Shown here piece by piece: positions 29,147-51,838 of a DNA stretch of 64,000 nt (its first letter is position 1; every line of letters starts with the position of its first letter). The stretch covers positions 838,816 through 902,815 of the forward strand of contig CAWIAX010000003.1 of NCBI GenBank assembly GCA_963834305.1, written 5' to 3'. This DNA is from an uncultured Acidobacteriota bacterium. GTDB taxonomy: Bacteria > Acidobacteriota > Vicinamibacteria > Vicinamibacterales > 2-12-FULL-66-21. A program made the translations under genes and the position numbers. Under the pieces are notes generated by a model. The model saw nothing but the letters and a program-made list of their open reading frames with translations. It was not told the DNA's origin and made no database searches.

Positions 29147-29283
29147 CGCGCATCCGCGGCTCAGGCTCGAGGACCGCCACGTCGACGGAAGCACGTCACG
29201 CGCACGCTGACGTGTGCCGGACCTGAATTGCACGCTGAACCCTGACCGAACGCTGACCGCGCCTGCACTTGAACATCGGCGAG

Positions 29284-43011: not shown

Positions 43012-43323
43012 ATGCAGAAGAAGTACAACCCGCTCACAGTGTTCCTGCTCGCGATCACGCTCATCGCTCCGCTCGTGCTCGCGGGATGTGGCAAGACCGT
43101 CGGCGAAACGATCGACGATGCGACGATCACGACCCGCGTGAAGACGTCGCTGCTGAACGACCCCGATATCGGTGGCATGCGCATCGACGTGGACACGTTC
43201 AAGGGAGTCGTCACGCTGTCCGGCCGTGTGAGGAGCAAGGACGAGGAAGCGAAGGCTCTTGCCGTTGCCCGGAAGATCAGCGGCGTCGCCGAAGTGAAGT
43301 CGACGCTGCAGATCGAACCCTGA
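43012..43323 (+). CDS. BON-domain lipoprotein (OsmY-like)
   Basis: 103 aa. Lipobox LVLAGCG. BON pattern DDATITTRVKTSLLNDPDIGGMRIDVDTFKGVVTLSGRVRSKDEEAKALAVARKISGVAEVKSTLQI. Confidence 0.8.
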   Translation: MQKKYNPLTVFLLAITLIAPLVLAGCGKTVGETIDDATITTRVKTSLLNDPDIGGMRIDVDTFKGVVTLSGRVRSKDEEAKALAVARKISGVAEVKSTLQIEP

Positions 43324-43380
43324 CCTCAGGCCGCTCGGTGCTCGGCCCCAGCACGATGCCCGCGCGCTCGTGCTGGGCGC

Positions 43381-44056
43381 CTACCACTCTTCTATCCTGA
43401 TCCGCCGCCGCTCGATCCCGAGATCGAGCAGCATGCGCGGCACCTCGTCCACCATCGCGGCCGGCCCGCACACGAAGCACAGCGTCTCCGGAGTTTCGAT
43501 CAACGGCGCCAGCCGGGCCGGCGTGATGCGCCCCTGTTCGCCGCGCCACCCGTCCGCCTCGCGCGTCGCGGTCAGCGCCAGTTCGCAGCCGCCCCTCCCG
43601 CGCGTAGCGCCGCAGCTCGGCCAGGTAGGCGAAGTCGCGCGGCGTGCGGGCGCTGTAGAGGAGATGGAGACGGCCGCGCTGCCCGGCCTGGTAGGCGTGG
43701 CAGATCATCGAGCGCAGCGGCGCGATCCCGGTGCCCCCCGCCACGAACAGGAAGTGGCGCTCTTCCGGCCGCGGCGGAAAGACGAACCCGCCGACCGGCC
43801 CCTCGACCACCAGCCGGGAGCCCCGGCGCAGCGCCGCGAGGTGCGCACCCCAGGCGTCCGGCTCCACCTTCAGCAGGAACTCGAGCCACCCGTGCGCCTC
43901 GGTCTCTTCCGGGGCCGAGGCGATCGAATAGGGATACCGCGCGGGGTCACCGGGGGCGCCGAGCAGCGCCGCCTGTCCGGCAGTGTAAGGGAACCTGGCT
44001 CCCTCGAGGGCGAGCCGGACGATCCGCGTCGCAGGCGTCGCGCGCCGGATGCTCAC
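43381..44056 (-). pseudogene. Ferredoxin-NADP reductase-like FAD/NAD(P)-binding oxidoreductase, one frame switch
   Basis: GTG 44056. FAD motif RYPYSIAS and NAD motif FLFVAGGTGIAPLRSM. After about 43585-43590 my translation in another frame gives LALTATREADGWRGEQGRITPARLAPLIETPETLCFVCGPAAMVDEVPRMLLDLGIERRRIRIEEW*, ending at TAG (43381-43383). Confidence 0.75.
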
Positions 44057-44059
44057 GAC

Positions 44060-44240
44060 GGGGAGGGAGAAAGAGGTCAGGGGGTTCAGAGGTTCAAGGT
44101 GCAGGGTTCAGGGTTCTGGGTTCACGGTTCAGGGTTCACCGTTCACCCTCCCGTTCAAGGTTCATTATCACGGACATCGCACCAAGAACCCTGCACCTTG
44201 AACCCGAACCTTGCACCCTGCACCCTGCACCCTGAACCTT
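44060..44240. repeat. Inverted pair of tandem heptanucleotide arrays (GGGTTCA/GGGTGCA units and their complement)
   Basis: The head is GGGGAGGGAGAAAGAGG (44060-44076). About 9 units follow: GGGTTCA AGGTTCA AGGTGCA GGGTTCA GGGTTCT GGGTTCA CGGTTCA GGGTTCA CCGTTCA (44082-44145). After a spacer of about 39 nt come about 8 complementary units: GAACCC TGCACCT TGAACCC GAACCT TGCACCC TGCACCC TGCACCC TGAACCT (44185-44239). The last unit abuts the stop codon of the upstream minus-strand gene. Confidence 0.85.
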
Positions 44241-46741
44241 CAGAGAATCCCCGCGGCGGCCCGCTGGATGTCGCTCTCGGTCAGCTCGCGTTGTGATGAG
44301 GCGGGGGCGGCCAGCTCGGGTGACGGGGCGCTGCGGCCGCCGGTCCGGCCGGAGCGGCGTTTGCGGTTGGCCTTGTCCTGGTACATCCGGTTGTCGGCGG
44401 TGGCCAGCAGGGCCTCGTAGGTGTCGCCGTCCTGGGGGAACACGGCGGTGCCGAGGCTGATGCCGAGGGGCAGGCGCTTGCCGGGGCGCCCCTCGAAGTA
44501 GACCTCGTCCACTGCCTGCTGCAGCTCGAGCCGCTTCTGCTCGGCTTCGTCGGCGCCGCAGCCGGACAGCACCACGATGAACTCGTCGCCGGCGTAGCGG
44601 ACGCAGATGTCGTAGGGGCGGATGCCGGCGCGCAGGACCCGTGCGATCTCGACGAGCGCGCGGTCGCCGACGTGGTGGCCGTGGTTGTCGTTGATCTCCT
44701 TGAAGTGGTCGAGGTCCATGACCATCAGCGAGAGCTCGCCTTTGAGGCGCTCGGCGCGCGCCAGCTCGCGCGACAGGTGCATGAACATGAAGCGCGTGTT
44801 CGGCAGCCCGGTCAGCGTGTCGGTGAGCGAGTCCTCCTGCGTCTGCTCGAACAGCATCGAGTTGTTGATGACCGCGGCCGCCTGCTCCGACACCCGGTCG
44901 AGCAGCCGGCGGTGATCGTCGCGGTAGAACGCGGCGTCGACGTGATAGACCGACAGCGTGCCGATGAAGCGGTCGTTGAACATCAGCGGGCAGACGAGCG
45001 CCGACTGCAGGTTGGTCGTGGCCGACATGCCGGTGGCCTCGAAGTCGGCGCTGGGCCGGGCGTTGACGAGCGGCCGGCGGTTCCGCGCCACCCACCCCGT
45101 GAGTCCCTCGCCCGAGCGCACGGTGACGCGGTTGATCAGCTCGGCGTCGGTGCCGGTCGCGAAGCGGCAGCGCAGCATCTCGGTCTCCTCGTCGAAGAGG
45201 AACAGCGCCGCGCAGGAGAACGGCACCAGGTTGCTCAGCTTCGCCGAGATCAGCGCCATCGTGTCCGAGATGCCGAGGCTGGTGCCCATCGCCTGCGCGA
45301 TCTCGTAGAGCGCGTAGATTTCGCGGTGCGCCAGCGCGATGTCGTCGAAGACGTTCTTCTTGCTCGGCTCCGGCGTCAGCCCGGTCGCCGGCTGCCCGCG
45401 CTCGGGCTGCGCGGCCGGCTCCGGCTTCCGCATCGCCTGCTCCAGCCTGGTGGCTTCCTCCTGCAGCCCCGGGATCAGCTCGACGAACTTGGCGACCACG
45501 GTCGGGTCCAGTCCCTTGCCGGCCTCCTGCTGCAGCAGGCCGATGGCGGCGTCGAAGCCCATCGCCTTGTGGTAGGGACGCTCCGCCATCAGCGCGTCGA
45601 AGTAGTCCACGACCGACAGGATGCGCGCCCCGAGCGGAATGTCGTTGGCCTTCAGGCCGGACGGATACCCCTTGCCATCCCACCGCTCGTGGTGGCTGAG
45701 GATGAGCGGCGCCACCGGATAGGGGAAGGGGACCGAGCTGACGATGTCGGCGCCCACCTTGGGATGGGCGCGGATCTTCTGGAACTCCTCCGGCGTCAGC
45801 GGTCCGGGCTTCGACAGGATGTGCTCGGGCACGGCAAGCTTGCCGATGTCGTGCAGCAGGGCCGCGGTCTTCACGCCCTGGATCTCGTTGTCGTTCATCC
45901 CCAGCGCGCCCGCCACCGCCGTCGCGTACATCTGGACGCGGCGGATGTGCGACTGGGACGTCTGGTCCTTGGCGTCGATCGCCAGCGCCAGCGCCTCGAT
46001 CGTCGCCAGGTGCAGGTCCGCCATCTCCCGCACGTGCCGCTGCTCGTCGTCGATGCGGCCGAGGTAGACCTTGTAGGTGCGGTAGGTCAGGTAGAGCGGC
46101 GCGGTGAGGAGCACGGCCAGCCAGTGCGCGTGGTCCACCACCATCCAGGCGGACACCGCCGCGACGCCGGCGCCGACGAAGTAGCTCGGCGCGCTCCACA
46201 GGAAGTTCTCGTTCCACACCCGCAGCACCGACTGCCGCGTGGACAGCGCGATCGCCGTGGCAATGGTCAGCGTGTTGATGACGAAGTAGGCGGTGGCGGC
46301 GCCGACCAGCGGCTGCGCAATCCTGTGCCAGTCGAACGTGCCCGGCACGCCGCCGAGCAGGATGTAGATGTGGCCGGCCGCCTGCACGGTCACGATCAGG
46401 CACGCCATGCTGAACAGCGTGCGATGGATCGGGTTCCGCTCCTTGATCCGGAACGTGCACTGGCTGTACGCGCTCGCCGCTGCCACCACCATCGTCTCGT
46501 TGGGGCCGAGGAGGAGGAGCGAGGCGAAGTCCACGGCGTACGAGACGGACATCGTCGACCCGCTGCGGACGAGCGGCAGGTTGACCTTGAACACCGAGGT
46601 GATCGAGGACAGCGAGAGCAGGAGCAGGAACAGCCACGGCGTGCCGAAGGTCTCGAGCGGAAAAAAGACGACGAGCAGGATGGCGCCGAGCGCGATCGCC
46701 CCGCCGACGTAGAGCCGCGCCGCAAGCGGCAGGCTGGTCAT
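44240..46741 (-). CDS. Polytopic membrane signalling protein: N-terminal multi-TM domain + HD-GYP phosphodiesterase + GAF + GGDEF-type (AGDEF) diguanylate cyclase domain
   Basis: ATG 46741 overlaps the S8 gene stop (ATGA). About 7-8 TM helices. HD-GYP motifs LLHDIGKLAVPEHIL and HHERWDGKGYPSGL. A GAF-like middle region. GGDEF domain with MDLDHFKEINDNHGHHVGD and RYAGDEFIVVL. The protein is 833 aa and intact. Confidence 0.9.
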   Translation of the reverse strand: MTSLPLAARLYVGGAIALGAILLVVFFPLETFGTPWLFLLLLSLSSITSVFKVNLPLVRSGSTMSVSYAVDFASLLLLGPNETMVVAAASAYSQCTFRIKERNPIHRTLFSMACLIVTVQAAGHIYILLGGVPGTFDWHRIAQPLVGAATAYFVINTLTIATAIALSTRQSVLRVWNENFLWSAPSYFVGAGVAAVSAWMVVDHAHWLAVLLTAPLYLTYRTYKVYLGRIDDEQRHVREMADLHLATIEALALAIDAKDQTSQSHIRRVQMYATAVAGALGMNDNEIQGVKTAALLHDIGKLAVPEHILSKPGPLTPEEFQKIRAHPKVGADIVSSVPFPYPVAPLILSHHERWDGKGYPSGLKANDIPLGARILSVVDYFDALMAERPYHKAMGFDAAIGLLQQEAGKGLDPTVVAKFVELIPGLQEEATRLEQAMRKPEPAAQPERGQPATGLTPEPSKKNVFDDIALAHREIYALYEIAQAMGTSLGISDTMALISAKLSNLVPFSCAALFLFDEETEMLRCRFATGTDAELINRVTVRSGEGLTGWVARNRRPLVNARPSADFEATGMSATTNLQSALVCPLMFNDRFIGTLSVYHVDAAFYRDDHRRLLDRVSEQAAAVINNSMLFEQTQEDSLTDTLTGLPNTRFMFMHLSRELARAERLKGELSLMVMDLDHFKEINDNHGHHVGDRALVEIARVLRAGIRPYDICVRYAGDEFIVVLSGCGADEAEQKRLELQQAVDEVYFEGRPGKRLPLGISLGTAVFPQDGDTYEALLATADNRMYQDKANRKRRSGRTGGRSAPSPELAAPASSQRELTESDIQRAAAGIL

Positions 46742-48087
46742 GGCTGGACCTCGGCGCCGGCCGACTGGGCGAGCAGGATCGCGCCGCGTGCGTCCAGGAA
46801 GCCGGCGCCCTGTGCGCTCGAGCCGTACCGCGCGTCGGCGACGGCTGTGGCGCGCAGGATCGCCTTGACGGCGTCGGGATCCAGCCCGGGGTTCGCCTCG
46901 AGCATCAGCGCCACGGTGCCGGCGACGACCGGCGCGGCCATGCTCGTGCCGCTGAGGCTCAGGTAAGGCTCGACCGCCGTGGCCGCCGTGCCCCACCGCC
47001 TCGCGGACGGCCGCGTGACGAACAGCGTACTGCCGGCATCGGCAAGCGACTCGATACCGACGCCGGGCGCCACGAGATCGGGCTTGGCCGCCCGGTCGAT
47101 GGCGCTGGGCCCGCGCGAGCTGAACGGCGCGATGGTGTCGTCGCCGCGTTCGACCGTCCCGTTGTGGTTCGATGCGCCGACGGTCAGGACCCACGGCGCG
47201 TTGCCGGGCGCCGTGATGCCGCCGCCGCCCGCCTCCGGGCGTGGGCGCCCCAGGTTGCCGGCCGCCGTGACGACTACGATGCCGGCGTCGGCGGCGCGAA
47301 GGGCGGCAAGCGTCAGCGGGTCGGTCCAGTAGGATTCGGAAACGGCCGCCGCGACCGACAGGTTGATCACGCGGATGTTGAAGGATGCCCGCCGGTCGAT
47401 CGCATAGTCGATCGCCGCGATCGCATCGCTGATGTAGCCCTCGCCCCGCGCATCGAGCGCCCGCAGGACGACGAGGTGGGCGCCGGGCGCGATGCCCCGC
47501 CGCTCCCCGCCCGAGTCGTGGCCGTTGCCCGCGATGATGCCCGCCACGTGCGTGCCGTGGCCGTAGCCATCGTGCGGCGCCGCGGCCGCCTCGACGAAAT
47601 CCGCGAAATGCACGACCTGGTTGCCGCCGAGGTCGTCGTGGGCCCGGGTCACGCCGGAGTCGATGATGGCGACGCCGATGCCGGTCCCGTCGAAGCCCAG
47701 GTTCTCCGTCACCCAGCGGGCGCCGATCGCCGCCGCGGTGCGGTCGAGCGCGCCGCGCAGCGGCCGGTCCACGGTGACGGCCTCGACGTCACGCCGTCCC
47801 GACAGCGCGGCCAGGTCGCTCTGCGCGACCTCCGCCACCACCGCCCGGCCGCCGGCCAGCCGCCGGCCTGTCCGGCCGCCCGTCGCGCTGATGGCGCGTT
47901 CGACAGCTGCGGCGTTGGTCGTCCGGACGATGACGCGCACCCATCCGCCGGGCGCCCGTGGTCCCGTCGGCGCCGCGAGCGCCGGCTCCGGCGCCGCCGC
48001 GCGGACGTGCGCCTGCCGGCCCGATGCAGGTGGGAGCACCAGGGTCAGGAGCAACGCGGCGAGCACGAAAGGCGCGGATCTGGCCAT
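46738..48087 (-). CDS. Secreted S8 (subtilisin-family) serine peptidase
   Basis: ATG 48087 gives the signal peptide MARSAPFVLAALLLTLVLPPASG. Catalytic triad contexts: VAIIDSGV (D), HGTHVAGIIAG (H), LSGTSMAAPVVAG (S). Confidence 0.85.
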   Translation of the reverse strand: MARSAPFVLAALLLTLVLPPASGRQAHVRAAAPEPALAAPTGPRAPGGWVRVIVRTTNAAAVERAISATGGRTGRRLAGGRAVVAEVAQSDLAALSGRRDVEAVTVDRPLRGALDRTAAAIGARWVTENLGFDGTGIGVAIIDSGVTRAHDDLGGNQVVHFADFVEAAAAPHDGYGHGTHVAGIIAGNGHDSGGERRGIAPGAHLVVLRALDARGEGYISDAIAAIDYAIDRRASFNIRVINLSVAAAVSESYWTDPLTLAALRAADAGIVVVTAAGNLGRPRPEAGGGGITAPGNAPWVLTVGASNHNGTVERGDDTIAPFSSRGPSAIDRAAKPDLVAPGVGIESLADAGSTLFVTRPSARRWGTAATAVEPYLSLSGTSMAAPVVAGTVALMLEANPGLDPDAVKAILRATAVADARYGSSAQGAGFLDARGAILLAQSAGAEVQP

Positions 48088-50183: not shown

Positions 50184-51341
50184 GTGCCGCATCGCGCGCC
50201 CGGGTCCCCGGGCCACGCTCCCAGCAATTACCTTAAAGGCAAGCCCATCAACTACTACCGGCCACGCGGCAGCGCGGATGTCCGGCAGCTCATCGACGGC
50301 GGCTTCCAGGCGTTCAACGCCGGACGGCTCTCGGAGGCCTGCCACATCTTCAGCGACAAGATGCTGGCGCCGGAAAACGACACCACCATCGGCCTCACGG
50401 TGGCCGGCGCCCTGACGCCGGCCGGCCTCGGCGGCTGTGTCATCGAGCTCATGGAGCGCGGCCTCGTCGATTTCCTGATCAGCACCGGCGCCAACCTCTA
50501 CCACGACCTGCACTACGCCCTGAACTTCACGCTCCACCGCGGCTCCCCGTTCCTCGACGACGTGGAGCTCTACGAGCAGGGGATCATCCGGATCTACGAC
50601 GTGCTGTTCCCGGCGACGGTCCTGCTCGAGACGGACAAGTACATCCGCGACTTTCTCGTCCGCACCGGCCTCCAGGGGGCGATGTCGACCTCGGAGCTGC
50701 ACTACCGGCTCGGCCTGGACCTCATCGAGCGCCATCCCGGCTGCGAGGAGTATTCGGTCGTGGCGCGCGCCGCGTCCCTCGGGGTGCCCATCTACACCTC
50801 CTCCCCGGGCGACAGCTCGATCGGCATGAACATCGCCTACCACGAGCTGATGAACGGCGGCACGCTGATGGTCGATCCCAACAAGGACGTCAACGAGATC
50901 TGCGCGATCATCCTGGCCGGGCACCAGAACGGGTGCGTGATCCTCGGCGGCGGGTCCCCCAAGAACTTCTACCTCCAGGGGCAGCCGACGCTGTGGGAGG
51001 TCTACGGCATCCCCAAGGGGGGCAACGACTACTTCATCCAGATCACGACCGACCAGGTCGTCTGGGGCGGCCTGTCCGGCGCGACGCCCGCCGAGGCGGT
51101 CAGCTGGGGCAAGGTCAACCCCGGGGTGCTCCCCGACACCGTCGTCGCCTACTGCGATTCGACAATCGCGTTTCCGCTGTTCTGCGAATACGCGGTTGGT
51201 TCGGAGCACAATCGGCGGCCGCGCCGCGAGCTGTACCACAAGCGCGACGCGCTCGTCGCCGACCTGCTGGTGCAGGCCAGGGCGGCGGGGCCGGACAAGC
51301 CGATTGCCGACGAGCCGGCGGAGATCGACAGGCATCGGTAG
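50184..51341 (+). CDS. Deoxyhypusine synthase family protein (bacterial DHS-like/homospermidine synthase-like)
   Basis: 385 aa, GTG start after GGAGGG. Motifs TIGLTVAGALTPAGLGG, FLISTGANLYHDLHYAL and ILGGGSPKNF. Confidence 0.85.
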   Translation: MPHRAPGSPGHAPSNYLKGKPINYYRPRGSADVRQLIDGGFQAFNAGRLSEACHIFSDKMLAPENDTTIGLTVAGALTPAGLGGCVIELMERGLVDFLISTGANLYHDLHYALNFTLHRGSPFLDDVELYEQGIIRIYDVLFPATVLLETDKYIRDFLVRTGLQGAMSTSELHYRLGLDLIERHPGCEEYSVVARAASLGVPIYTSSPGDSSIGMNIAYHELMNGGTLMVDPNKDVNEICAIILAGHQNGCVILGGGSPKNFYLQGQPTLWEVYGIPKGGNDYFIQITTDQVVWGGLSGATPAEAVSWGKVNPGVLPDTVVAYCDSTIAFPLFCEYAVGSEHNRRPRRELYHKRDALVADLLVQARAAGPDKPIADEPAEIDRHR

Positions 51342-51399
51342 GGGAGGGGAAAGGGCTAAGGGCGAAGGGCTAAGGGCGAAGGGCGAAGGGCGAAGTGGG
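51341..51399. repeat. Tandem heptanucleotide array (AAGGGCK)x7 with GGGGAGGGGAAAG head
   Basis: GGGGAGGGGA then AAGGGCT AAGGGCG AAGGGCT AAGGGCG AAGGGCG AAGGGCG AAGTGGG. The array fills the gap between the DHS-like stop (51341) and the GTG at 51395 of the next ORF. Confidence 0.85.
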
Positions 51400-51838
51400 A
51401 ACTCTGGCTTCCGAATTGACGCCGTTCGTGCCGGGGGACGCGCCGCGGATCTACGCGGATGCCAACATGCCGTACGGGGCGGTTGCCTACATGCGGCAGC
51501 GCCTCGGGTGGGACGTGCTCTTCGTGCTCGAGCACGACGACTTGCGGCGGGCCCGCGACATCGAGCACTATCGGCTCGCGCGGCAGCTGGCGCGCACGCT
51601 CGTCACGCTCGATCACGACTACGAGGACCCGGCGCGGTTTCCGGCCGGGCAGGGAGCGGGCGTCATCGTGTTCATGGCGCCCGACGAGCGCCGGCTCTGC
51701 GAGCTGCTGGCCCGGGCCGACCGGGAGCTGTTCCGGGCAGCGGGCGCCCCGCCGCTGCCGCTCGAAGGGCAGAAGATGCGCTGGCACATCGCCGCGGCCG
51801 AGCGCCTGGGCGGTACCTGTTCGGGCGCGGCACAATGA
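51395..51838 (+). CDS. DUF5615-like (Mut7-C/PIN-like) protein; start uncertain
   Basis: 147 aa. IYADANMPYGAVAYMRQRLGWDVLFVLEHDDLRRARDIEHYRLARQLARTLVTLDHDY resembles the DUF5615 pattern (DENl...L...G.DV....e......D.e....A....R.l.T.D.DF). The annotated GTG start lies inside the last repeat unit. Confidence 0.5.
   Translation: MGTLASELTPFVPGDAPRIYADANMPYGAVAYMRQRLGWDVLFVLEHDDLRRARDIEHYRLARQLARTLVTLDHDYEDPARFPAGQGAGVIVFMAPDERRLCELLARADRELFRAAGAPPLPLEGQKMRWHIAAAERLGGTCSGAAQ

Follow-up and report, generated by a model that had tools for sequence, protein, structure and literature searches.

A convergent pair of heptanucleotide repeat arrays between an HD-GYP/GGDEF gene and an FNR-like gene in an uncultured acidobacterium

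The window described here, meaning the whole stretch of 64,000 nucleotides that was analyzed (G+C content 70%), comes from contig CAWIAX010000003.1 of an uncultured Acidobacteriota bacterium of the Vicinamibacterales, and all positions refer to it unless another sequence is named. The element in question lies in a 183-nt spacer between two genes on the minus strand, which runs from the TGA (44242-44240) of a gene encoding an HD-GYP/GGDEF protein to the GTG (44056-44054) of an FNR-like gene. These gene identities had been proposed earlier from the letters alone (hereafter the original prediction) and are borne out by matches to HD_5/HD, GAF and GGDEF in the first protein and to NAD_binding_1 in the second. 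The spacer contains two opposed arrays of a 7-nt unit: about nine units of the GGGTTCA type in the plus-strand arm (44082-44146) and, after a gap of 39 nt, about eight units of the complement type (44185-44240). The pair is thus convergent, G-rich first on the plus strand and then on the minus strand; in the sense (minus) direction a G-rich arm (G-arm) is followed by a C-rich arm (C-arm). The plus-strand letters of 44082-44146 are …GGGGGTTCAG AGGTTCA AGGTGCA GGGTTCA GGGTTCT GGGTTCA CGGTTCA GGGTTCA CCGTTCA… and those of 44185-44240 are AGAACCC TGCACCT TGAACCC GAACCT TGCACCC TGCACCC TGCACCC TGAACCT, so that about half of the units have a decayed G tract (AGG, CGG). The C-terminus of the HD-GYP/GGDEF protein (…AAGIL*) is conserved in its orthologues, and the array therefore starts exactly at a conserved stop. 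The coordinates of these and related features, including the open reading frames (ORFs), are collected in Table 1.

Table 1. Positions of the repeat arrays, the flanking genes and related features in the window and in other loci (handles beginning with L)
Feature	Sequence	Position	Strand	Remarks
G-rich arm, sense strand	window	44185..44240	-	AGGTTCA GGGTGCA x3 AGGTTC GGGTTCA AGGTGCA GGGTTCT; begins directly after the TGA
Central segment: predicted hairpin loop and decayed units (…GTTCAAGGTTCATTATCACGGACATCGCACC…)	window	44147..44184		
G-rich arm, plus strand, GGGTTCA-type, about nine units	window	44082..44146	+	C-rich 3' arm of the minus-strand transcript
Head, pyrimidine-rich on the sense strand (CTG ACC TCT TTC TCC CTC CCC GTC)	window	44057..44081	-	homologous to the first 8-9 orthologue codons
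Upstream gene: MASE9-like N-terminus (Pfam match below cutoff), HD-GYP (HD_5/HD), GAF, GGDEF	window	44240..47194	-	
Downstream FNR-like ORF, NAD_binding_1	window	43277..44056	-	
Second, single heptamer array, (AAGGGCG/TAAGGGC) x about 7	window	51341..51396	+	G-rich on the sense strand; strong G-quadruplex prediction
Short decayed array, TGCACGC TGAACCC TGACCGA	window	29229..29259	+	C-rich on the sense strand, 26 nt upstream of ATG 29285
GATAAGATTC site	L121	860-880		
GATAAGATTC site	L122	1455-1475		
GATAAGATTC site	L126	1228-1248		
IMG/VR pairs	L198	30-200, 1276-1383, 3230-3369		
IMG/VR pairs	L179			
IMG/VR pairs	L146/L149			

Tandem Repeats Finder reported a period of 7 with 8.0 copies of the consensus GGGTTCA for the left array (44082-44138 or 44146, score 77-82) and 7.4 copies of the consensus ACCCTGC/GAACCCT for the right array (44186-44240, score 60-68). 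The two-unit pattern GGGTKCAGGGTKCA, with at most two mismatches, had 14 matches in the window, seven on the plus strand (44090-44145), six on the minus strand (44185-44239) and one elsewhere. Shuffled windows gave 1.5 +/- 1.2 matches with a maximum of 5, and none of 100 shuffles reached 14. A scan of the window at periods of 5-11 and 14 showed arrays solely at period 7 (and 14) and solely at 44089-44151 and 51340-51407. The latter array (51341-51396) extends from the TAG that ends a deoxyhypusine-synthase-like gene to the GTG that opens a DUF5615 gene. Together with a short decayed array, the 64-kb window thus holds two clear heptamer arrays and one decayed one.

The inverted-repeat search found arms of 33-38 nt with 79-85% complementarity in four or more registers that lie 7 nt apart. 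In the window, complementarity reaches 92% over 24 nt between one arm and the inner part of its counterpart. Folding of a 201-nt region gave -92.3 kcal/mol (z -4.67) for the minus-strand RNA, -93.5 kcal/mol (z -5.77) for the plus-strand RNA and -48.9 kcal/mol (z -5.63) for the region as DNA, and an imperfect hairpin of roughly 55-60 bp is predicted on either strand. The original prediction had described the spacer as two opposed 7-nt arrays that form a long imperfect palindrome, and the repeat finder, the inverted-repeat search and the folding all agree with it. The pairing in several registers that it had suggested is likewise supported by the inverted-repeat arms at 7-nt offsets, and its hairpin with arms of about 55 nt by the predicted energy of about -93 kcal/mol as RNA.

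Such a structure could be an RNA stem-loop under selection, serving as a terminator or attenuator that has no U-tract, as a barrier to 3'-exonucleases in the manner of repetitive extragenic palindromic sequences and bacterial interspersed mosaic elements (REP/BIME), or in translational coupling, where a ribosome stopping at the TGA would melt the stem foot that holds the downstream start. This explanation is a possible one, although it is distinctly the less probable account of the locus. In its favor, the hairpin predicted in the sense transcript is very stable, and most repeats of this kind are transcribed (Rehm et al., 2015, PMC4692102). Against it, the stem is not followed by a U-tract but by CCCCCTGACCTCTTTCTCC, and no terminator-like site was found in 43700-44600 on either strand; the combination of a G+C-rich stem-loop and a direct U-tract that makes a canonical intrinsic terminator is absent from the pair, for which the original prediction had suggested a putative terminator or insulator role. 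No sigma-70-like promoter was found at the locus. A search of the spacer with Rfam 15 returned no family, and its top match (mir-342, 24.2 bits versus a gathering score of 60) is a chance similarity.

The units could also act as a G-quadruplex (G4) element, in which the heptamers would fold as G4 DNA or RNA on each strand and modulate the transcription or translation of the flanking genes; such a role has been proposed for the repeats of Xanthomonas and Nostoc. The units do contain GGG tracts 4 nt apart, and G4 formation in vitro has been shown for repeats of related consensus (Rehm et al., 2015, PMC4692102), but this reading is unlikely for the pair. Neither arm has four G3 tracts at loops of 7 nt or less, no G3N1-7 x4 motif occurs in 44050-44250 on either strand, and the G4Hunter scores of the two arms are 0.63 and 0.91. 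In addition, a quadruplex-aware fold left the minimum-energy structure of the whole spacer unchanged as the hairpin, and one arm alone gained just 0.5 kcal/mol. By these computations the hairpin would dominate over G4 in the arms of the pair. More favorable to G4 is the array at 51341-51396, which has a four-tract G4 motif, a G4Hunter score of 1.47 and two predicted quadruplexes (-26.0 versus -9.2 kcal/mol). A GGG/CCC run was present in 26% of 287 further heptamer arrays in fetched loci, compared with 28.5% for random units, and G4 potential is therefore not a defining property of heptamer arrays. As a defining property, G4 was rejected both for the arms of the pair and for heptamer arrays in general.

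The same locus can be followed in related metagenome contigs, which come from soil-type samples. In L126 (77% amino acid identity), where the synteny from GGDEF to FNR is kept, the spacer is 22 nt long and has no arrays (TGA AGCAGCACGATAAGATTCAGGC TTG), and in L121 (63% identity) a spacer of about 110 nt is also free of arrays. The pair is present in six closer contigs (L125, L127-L131). L125 is 99.3% identical over the next 600 nt and carries the arrays exactly as in the window, while L131 (95.3% flank identity) has a C-rich arm that is one unit shorter, plus substitutions. L127-L130 (86% identity) encode an identical 163-amino-acid protein, P0121, in all four, and the repeats next to it differ. 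The stop-to-anchor distance is 227 nt in L130 versus 254 nt in L129, the C-rich half measures 104 nt in L128, 111 nt in L127 and 118 nt in L129 and L130, and the G-arm has 12 versus 16 units with the C-arm constant. Spacers of 186, 227 and 254 nt occur among the compared sequences that have the pair. The central segment is partly kept in the 86%-identity relatives (ATGTCCGTGAT versus GTGTCCGTGAG). The predicted hairpin also persists, at -145.6 kcal/mol (z -5.95) in L129 and -130.8 kcal/mol (z -6.77) in L130, and the outer stem of L129 includes an aberrant unit, GGGGATTCA, that has its mirror image, TGAATCCCC, in the opposite arm.

The pair arose within this lineage, the orthologue spacers being 22-110 nt long and without arrays. 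Both arms change length in 7-nt steps, independently of each other, and the paired state persists over about 14% flank divergence. The suggestion that the element is slippage-prone and variable in length has therefore held, on the strength of the unit-number differences among close relatives. Steps of 7 nt among near-identical sequences are the hallmark of slipped-strand mispairing and rule out a coding role. The 24-nt stretch of 92% complementarity and the mirrored GGGGATTCA/TGAATCCCC units suggest a common ancestry of the arms by inverted duplication, followed by separate slippage. For the RNA stem-loop these comparisons cut both ways. The hairpin is kept in diverged relatives despite the turnover of units, but the arm lengths drift independently, so that no fixed structure is conserved, and the pair is absent from the orthologous spacers at 77% and 63% identity.

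A more distant locus, L123 (45% amino acid identity), has a small opposed pair of another unit, ATTGCGG / CCGCAAT, at 1800-1860, directly after the stop of the GGDEF gene. Pairs therefore arise repeatedly at such positions. L122 and L123 contain further arrays with other units, and within the lineage the units differ between arrays (GGGTKCA, AAGGGCG, GGCTCAG, ATTGCGG).

Four independent metagenome contigs (L125, L127, L128 and L131, each at its position 1) end inside or at the edge of the pair, which makes such pairs assembly breakpoints. Contig ends of this kind, together with a 308-amino-acid plus-strand ORF (43370-44296) that spans the arrays, could be taken to mean that the pair results from misassembly of a repeat or belongs to a coding sequence. 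This is the most improbable of the explanations considered. Seven sequences, assembled independently of one another, have the pair in the same flanking context, and the ORF, which runs antisense to the FNR-like gene, matches no Pfam family. Strain indels of 7 and 27 nt would break any frame, and they uphold the original prediction in its view of the spacer as non-coding. In practical terms, such pairs break short-read assemblies, as the four related contigs that end in or at this one illustrate. The 7-nt changes between near-identical strains also mean that pairs could be used as markers to distinguish strains of uncultured soil lineages.

Heptamer repeats of a very similar kind have been reported from other bacteria. 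Rehm et al. (2015, PMC4692102) have described GGGAATC repeats in Xanthomonas campestris and X. axonopodis, in which the G+C content of coding DNA is about 65%, and GGGGAYT repeats in Nostoc PCC 7120. The Xanthomonas genomes contain about 180 heptamer copies each, with a preference for four units, and 70-75 convergent inverted pairs per genome. The repeats are over-represented in non-coding DNA, preferentially between co-directional ORFs, lie closest to the 5' neighboring ORF whatever its orientation, overlap stop codons and are mostly transcribed. They are found 0-50 bp from a stop when the G-rich strand is coding and 0-50 bp upstream of an ORF when the G-rich strand is non-coding. Their length differs between the two Xanthomonas species (Xcc versus Xac) with the single or paired type preserved; no association with insertion sequences (IS) or transposable elements was seen, and a function was not identified (Rehm et al., 2015, PMC4692102). 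The orientation of the pairs has been reported for Xanthomonas without an explanation.

The window pair resembles these repeats in its head-to-tail 7-nt unit with a G3+ tract (8.0 and 7.4 copies), in its intergenic location, in being a convergent inverted pair able to form a stem-loop, and in a unit number that varies between related genomes while the position is kept. The position rule also holds, as the sense G-arm starts at the base after the TGA (44240) and the other arm, G-rich on the antisense strand, stops 25 nt short of GTG 44056, or 1 nt short of CTG 44080 if the gene starts there. The differences are the GGGTKCA unit, the acidobacterial host and the longer arms (8-9 units, 16+ in relatives), as well as the lack of four consecutive G3 tracts and the dominance of the predicted hairpin. 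At the level of sequence, the pair has every tested feature of the Xanthomonas class except the four-tract G4, and what is new is the unit and the phylum, not the kind of element. The original prediction had known of no equivalent described for a genome of high G+C content; the Xanthomonas GGGAATC repeats supersede this.

The short tandemly repeated repetitive (STRR) sequences of heterocystous cyanobacteria have the units CCCCAGT, TTGGTCA and CAACAGT. STRR heptanucleotide repeats were reportedly described in Calothrix/Anabaena by Mazel and co-workers in 1990. Like the pair, they are tandem intergenic heptamers, dispersed and variable enough for strain fingerprinting, but their unit sequences differ from GGGTKCA, they belong to another phylum and they are usually single direct arrays. 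MacGregor (2015, PMC4679880) has reported TAACTGA heptamers from marine Beggiatoaceae, Cyanobacteria and Bacteroidetes, for which a post-transcriptional role has been proposed. These are also intergenic direct heptamers near gene boundaries in scattered phyla; however, the unit is AT-rich with two stop codons, occurs in 2-6 copies directly upstream of start codons, and forms one inverted set among 170. The Chloroflexus GATAGRA repeat is a further heptamer case (Subirana and Messeguer, 2019). As summarized in PMC4679880 and PMC4692102, Mrazek et al. (2007) have shown that heptanucleotides are the commonest class of long simple-sequence repeats (LSSRs) in most genomes, that the genomes richest in 5-11-nt repeats include Burkholderia, Xanthomonas and Actinobacteria, and that polymerase slippage on a 7-nt footprint is a proposed cause. 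With a unit in the 5-11-nt range and 14 matches where 1.5 are expected, the pair is longer than chance and belongs to this class, which is a statistical one and, in those summaries, silent on inverted pairing or polarity. A literature search found no description of such an element for Acidobacteriota, and a full-text search for the unit sequence returned just unrelated primer and sequence matches. REP/BIME are dispersed imperfect palindromes of 20-40 nt with a conserved GTAG/CGTC head, spread by REP-associated tyrosine transposases (RAYT). If the pair were functional, it would resemble the enterobacterial REP/BIME as an intercistronic palindrome that folds in the transcript and is able to protect the upstream mRNA or attenuate read-through. 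It differs from them in its tandem-heptamer arms that evolve by slippage, in the lack of an enriched head and in central cores that are unrelated.

Heptamer arrays with the same unit are widespread. A scan of a species-representative genome collection for (GGGTKCA)3 gave matches in at least 120 genome stretches, and 72 viral-contig stretches also matched. The phyla among the matches listed include Acidobacteriota, Planctomycetota, Lentisphaeria/Verrucomicrobiota, Bacteroidota, Chloroflexota, Gammaproteobacteria and Cyanobacteria, along with others. In 0.9 Mb of fetched loci, the non-seed arrays numbered 153 at period 7 compared with 16 at period 6 and 21 at period 8. The original prediction had allowed that the locus might be a one-off simple-sequence accident. 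As far as uniqueness is concerned this does not stand, given the second heptamer array at 51341-51396 and the GGGTKCA arrays in other genomes. The layout stop, G-arm, loop, C-arm, start recurs in unrelated genomes (L034, L047, L123, L198), which favors a selected RNA stem-loop; arrays that expand until they meet coding sequence would, however, give the same layout without a function.

The occurrence of similar pairs in many genomes and viral contigs, and the replacement of a short ancestral spacer by the pair, would also be expected of a non-autonomous mobile element, similar to REP or to a miniature inverted-repeat transposable element (MITE), that had inserted between the genes with the heptamer arrays as its terminal inverted repeats. 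This origin is very unlikely. The central segments of pairs from different genomes share nothing, the units differ among the arrays of one lineage, no target-site duplication is visible at the edges of the pair, and the published repeats show no link to IS or to transposable elements (Rehm et al., 2015, PMC4692102). The 7-nt steps in unit number fit slippage instead.

Complementary pairs in the fetched loci (L001-L124 and L132-L203) have a strong polarity, with the G-arm first in 35 and the C-arm first in 2 (p 1e-8), and the 35 of 37 span Acidobacteriota, Planctomycetota, Verrucomicrobiota/Lentisphaeria, Chloroflexota, Bacteroidota, Proteobacteria and viral contigs. Neighboring arrays with unrelated units have a weaker bias (22 G-arm first versus 7). 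The 5' end of the G-strand was nearer to a gene edge than the 3' end in 147 versus 65 cases overall and in 61 versus 33 single arrays (p 0.005); the distances come from a crude gene caller that missed the frameshifted FNR-like gene and give only rough support for the published rule. A directional-growth model, in which arrays would grow from the 5' end of the G-strand up to the next gene, was considered for the polarity and rejected, as two tests of it were null: degenerate in-phase tails (0.289 versus 0.275, p 0.13) and unit purity at the two array ends (0.63 in the first three units, 0.61 in the last three, p 0.22). Two candidate causes can be named: an attractive one is that C-rich untranslated RNA, if made ahead of its partner, would load Rho and be selected against, and the other is a strand-biased fold-back step that creates pairs. 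It is a rather doubtful idea that the G-arm-first polarity could have one cause and hold as a general architectural rule in bacterial genomes, the window pair being one instance of functionally constrained 'Rho-silent' structured spacers. If the rule were true, the window pair would belong to a widespread, functionally constrained class and would not be junk simple-sequence DNA.

Putative viral sequences carry several pairs each. IMG/VR contigs 3300037692_000252 and 3300006175_000271 have several GGGTTCA/TGAACCC pairs (Table 1), and the layout in L198 is TAG, G-arm, loop, C-arm, ATG.

Overall, the element is a convergent pair of heptanucleotide simple-sequence repeat (SSR) arrays with the unit GGGTKCA, of the same kind as the Xanthomonas GGGAATC and Nostoc GGGGAYT repeats, and probably a tolerated, slippage-evolving structural spacer. 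It originated in this lineage in place of a short ancestral spacer without arrays; the two arms probably share their ancestry through an inverted duplication, and each arm then gained and lost units separately by slipped-strand mispairing. The transcript or single-stranded DNA is computed to fold into a multi-register imperfect hairpin, which would place at the base of its stem both the HD-GYP/GGDEF stop codon and the region where the FNR-like gene starts. An untranslated segment of 160-180 nt may in this way be kept folded, with the G-rich arm emerging first and the C-rich arm paired once it is made. The pair also appears to have displaced the native start region of the downstream FNR-like gene. 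Because the arms drift independently, the orthologues do without the pair and the native start region seems displaced, the element at this locus would be a tolerated, fast-evolving and self-renewing structural spacer rather than a conserved regulatory device.

Several points weigh against the tolerated spacer. Both arms and the hairpin are kept through about 14% flank divergence, which could indicate selection for the structure, and the G-arm-first polarity (35 versus 2) is not predicted by a purely neutral slippage model. Formation of the hairpin in vivo, on RNA or on DNA, is a prediction, and the genome-wide abundance of such arrays in this organism is extrapolated from two or three arrays in 64 kb. 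The locus extends a documented class, so far studied in Xanthomonas and Nostoc, to the Acidobacteriota and, by pattern scan, to many phyla and viral contigs. The population-level series at this locus provides a concrete test case for the questions of why the unit has seven nucleotides and why the G-arm comes first.

The short head between the arrays and the GTG contains GGGGAGGGRGAAAG at 44060. The original prediction had treated this sequence as a possible family signature, but it has two matches in the window with at most two mismatches, a number equalled in 22% of shuffles. As a family motif it was rejected, since it is not enriched and fits better with a set of diverged N-terminal codons. 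Its reverse complement consists of codons that are homologous to the N-terminal end of the downstream gene. On the sense strand, the head and start read CTG ACC TCT TTC TCC CTC CCC GTC GTG AGC, and the counterpart in L126 reads TTG AAG ACA CTC GTT CTC ACG GTC AGG AGT, which places CTG 44080-44078 (minus strand) at the position of the TTG start in that orthologue. In L127-L130, CTC stands in place of the GTG of the window, and no ATG, GTG or TTG precedes the conserved N-terminal region. Either the FNR-like gene may start at a CTG supplied by the final repeat unit, or the gene may be in the course of losing its start codon. If CTG 44080-44078 were the start codon, the arrays would occupy the entire interval between the stop and the start.

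Among named homologues of the FNR-like protein, the best come from metagenome-assembled genomes labeled 'Vicinamibacterales bacterium', at 77% and 61-63% identity. Compared with six of six related contigs, the window has an extra G at 43586; the ORF is therefore out of frame after about residue 157, and the homologue match is limited to the first 60-65%. The extra G is either a sequencing error or the mark of a strain-specific pseudogene. The hairpin loop (GATAATGAACC..TTGAAC) resembles the ancestral spacer (GATAAGATTCAGGCTTGAAG), but this likeness was dropped as probably due to chance, and it is absent in the 86%-identity relatives. The FNR-like orthologues have in common GATAAGATTC, which contains a -10-like TAAGAT and lies 5-9 nt before the start; it has been lost in the window, and in the orthologues it may be the promoter of a leaderless mRNA.

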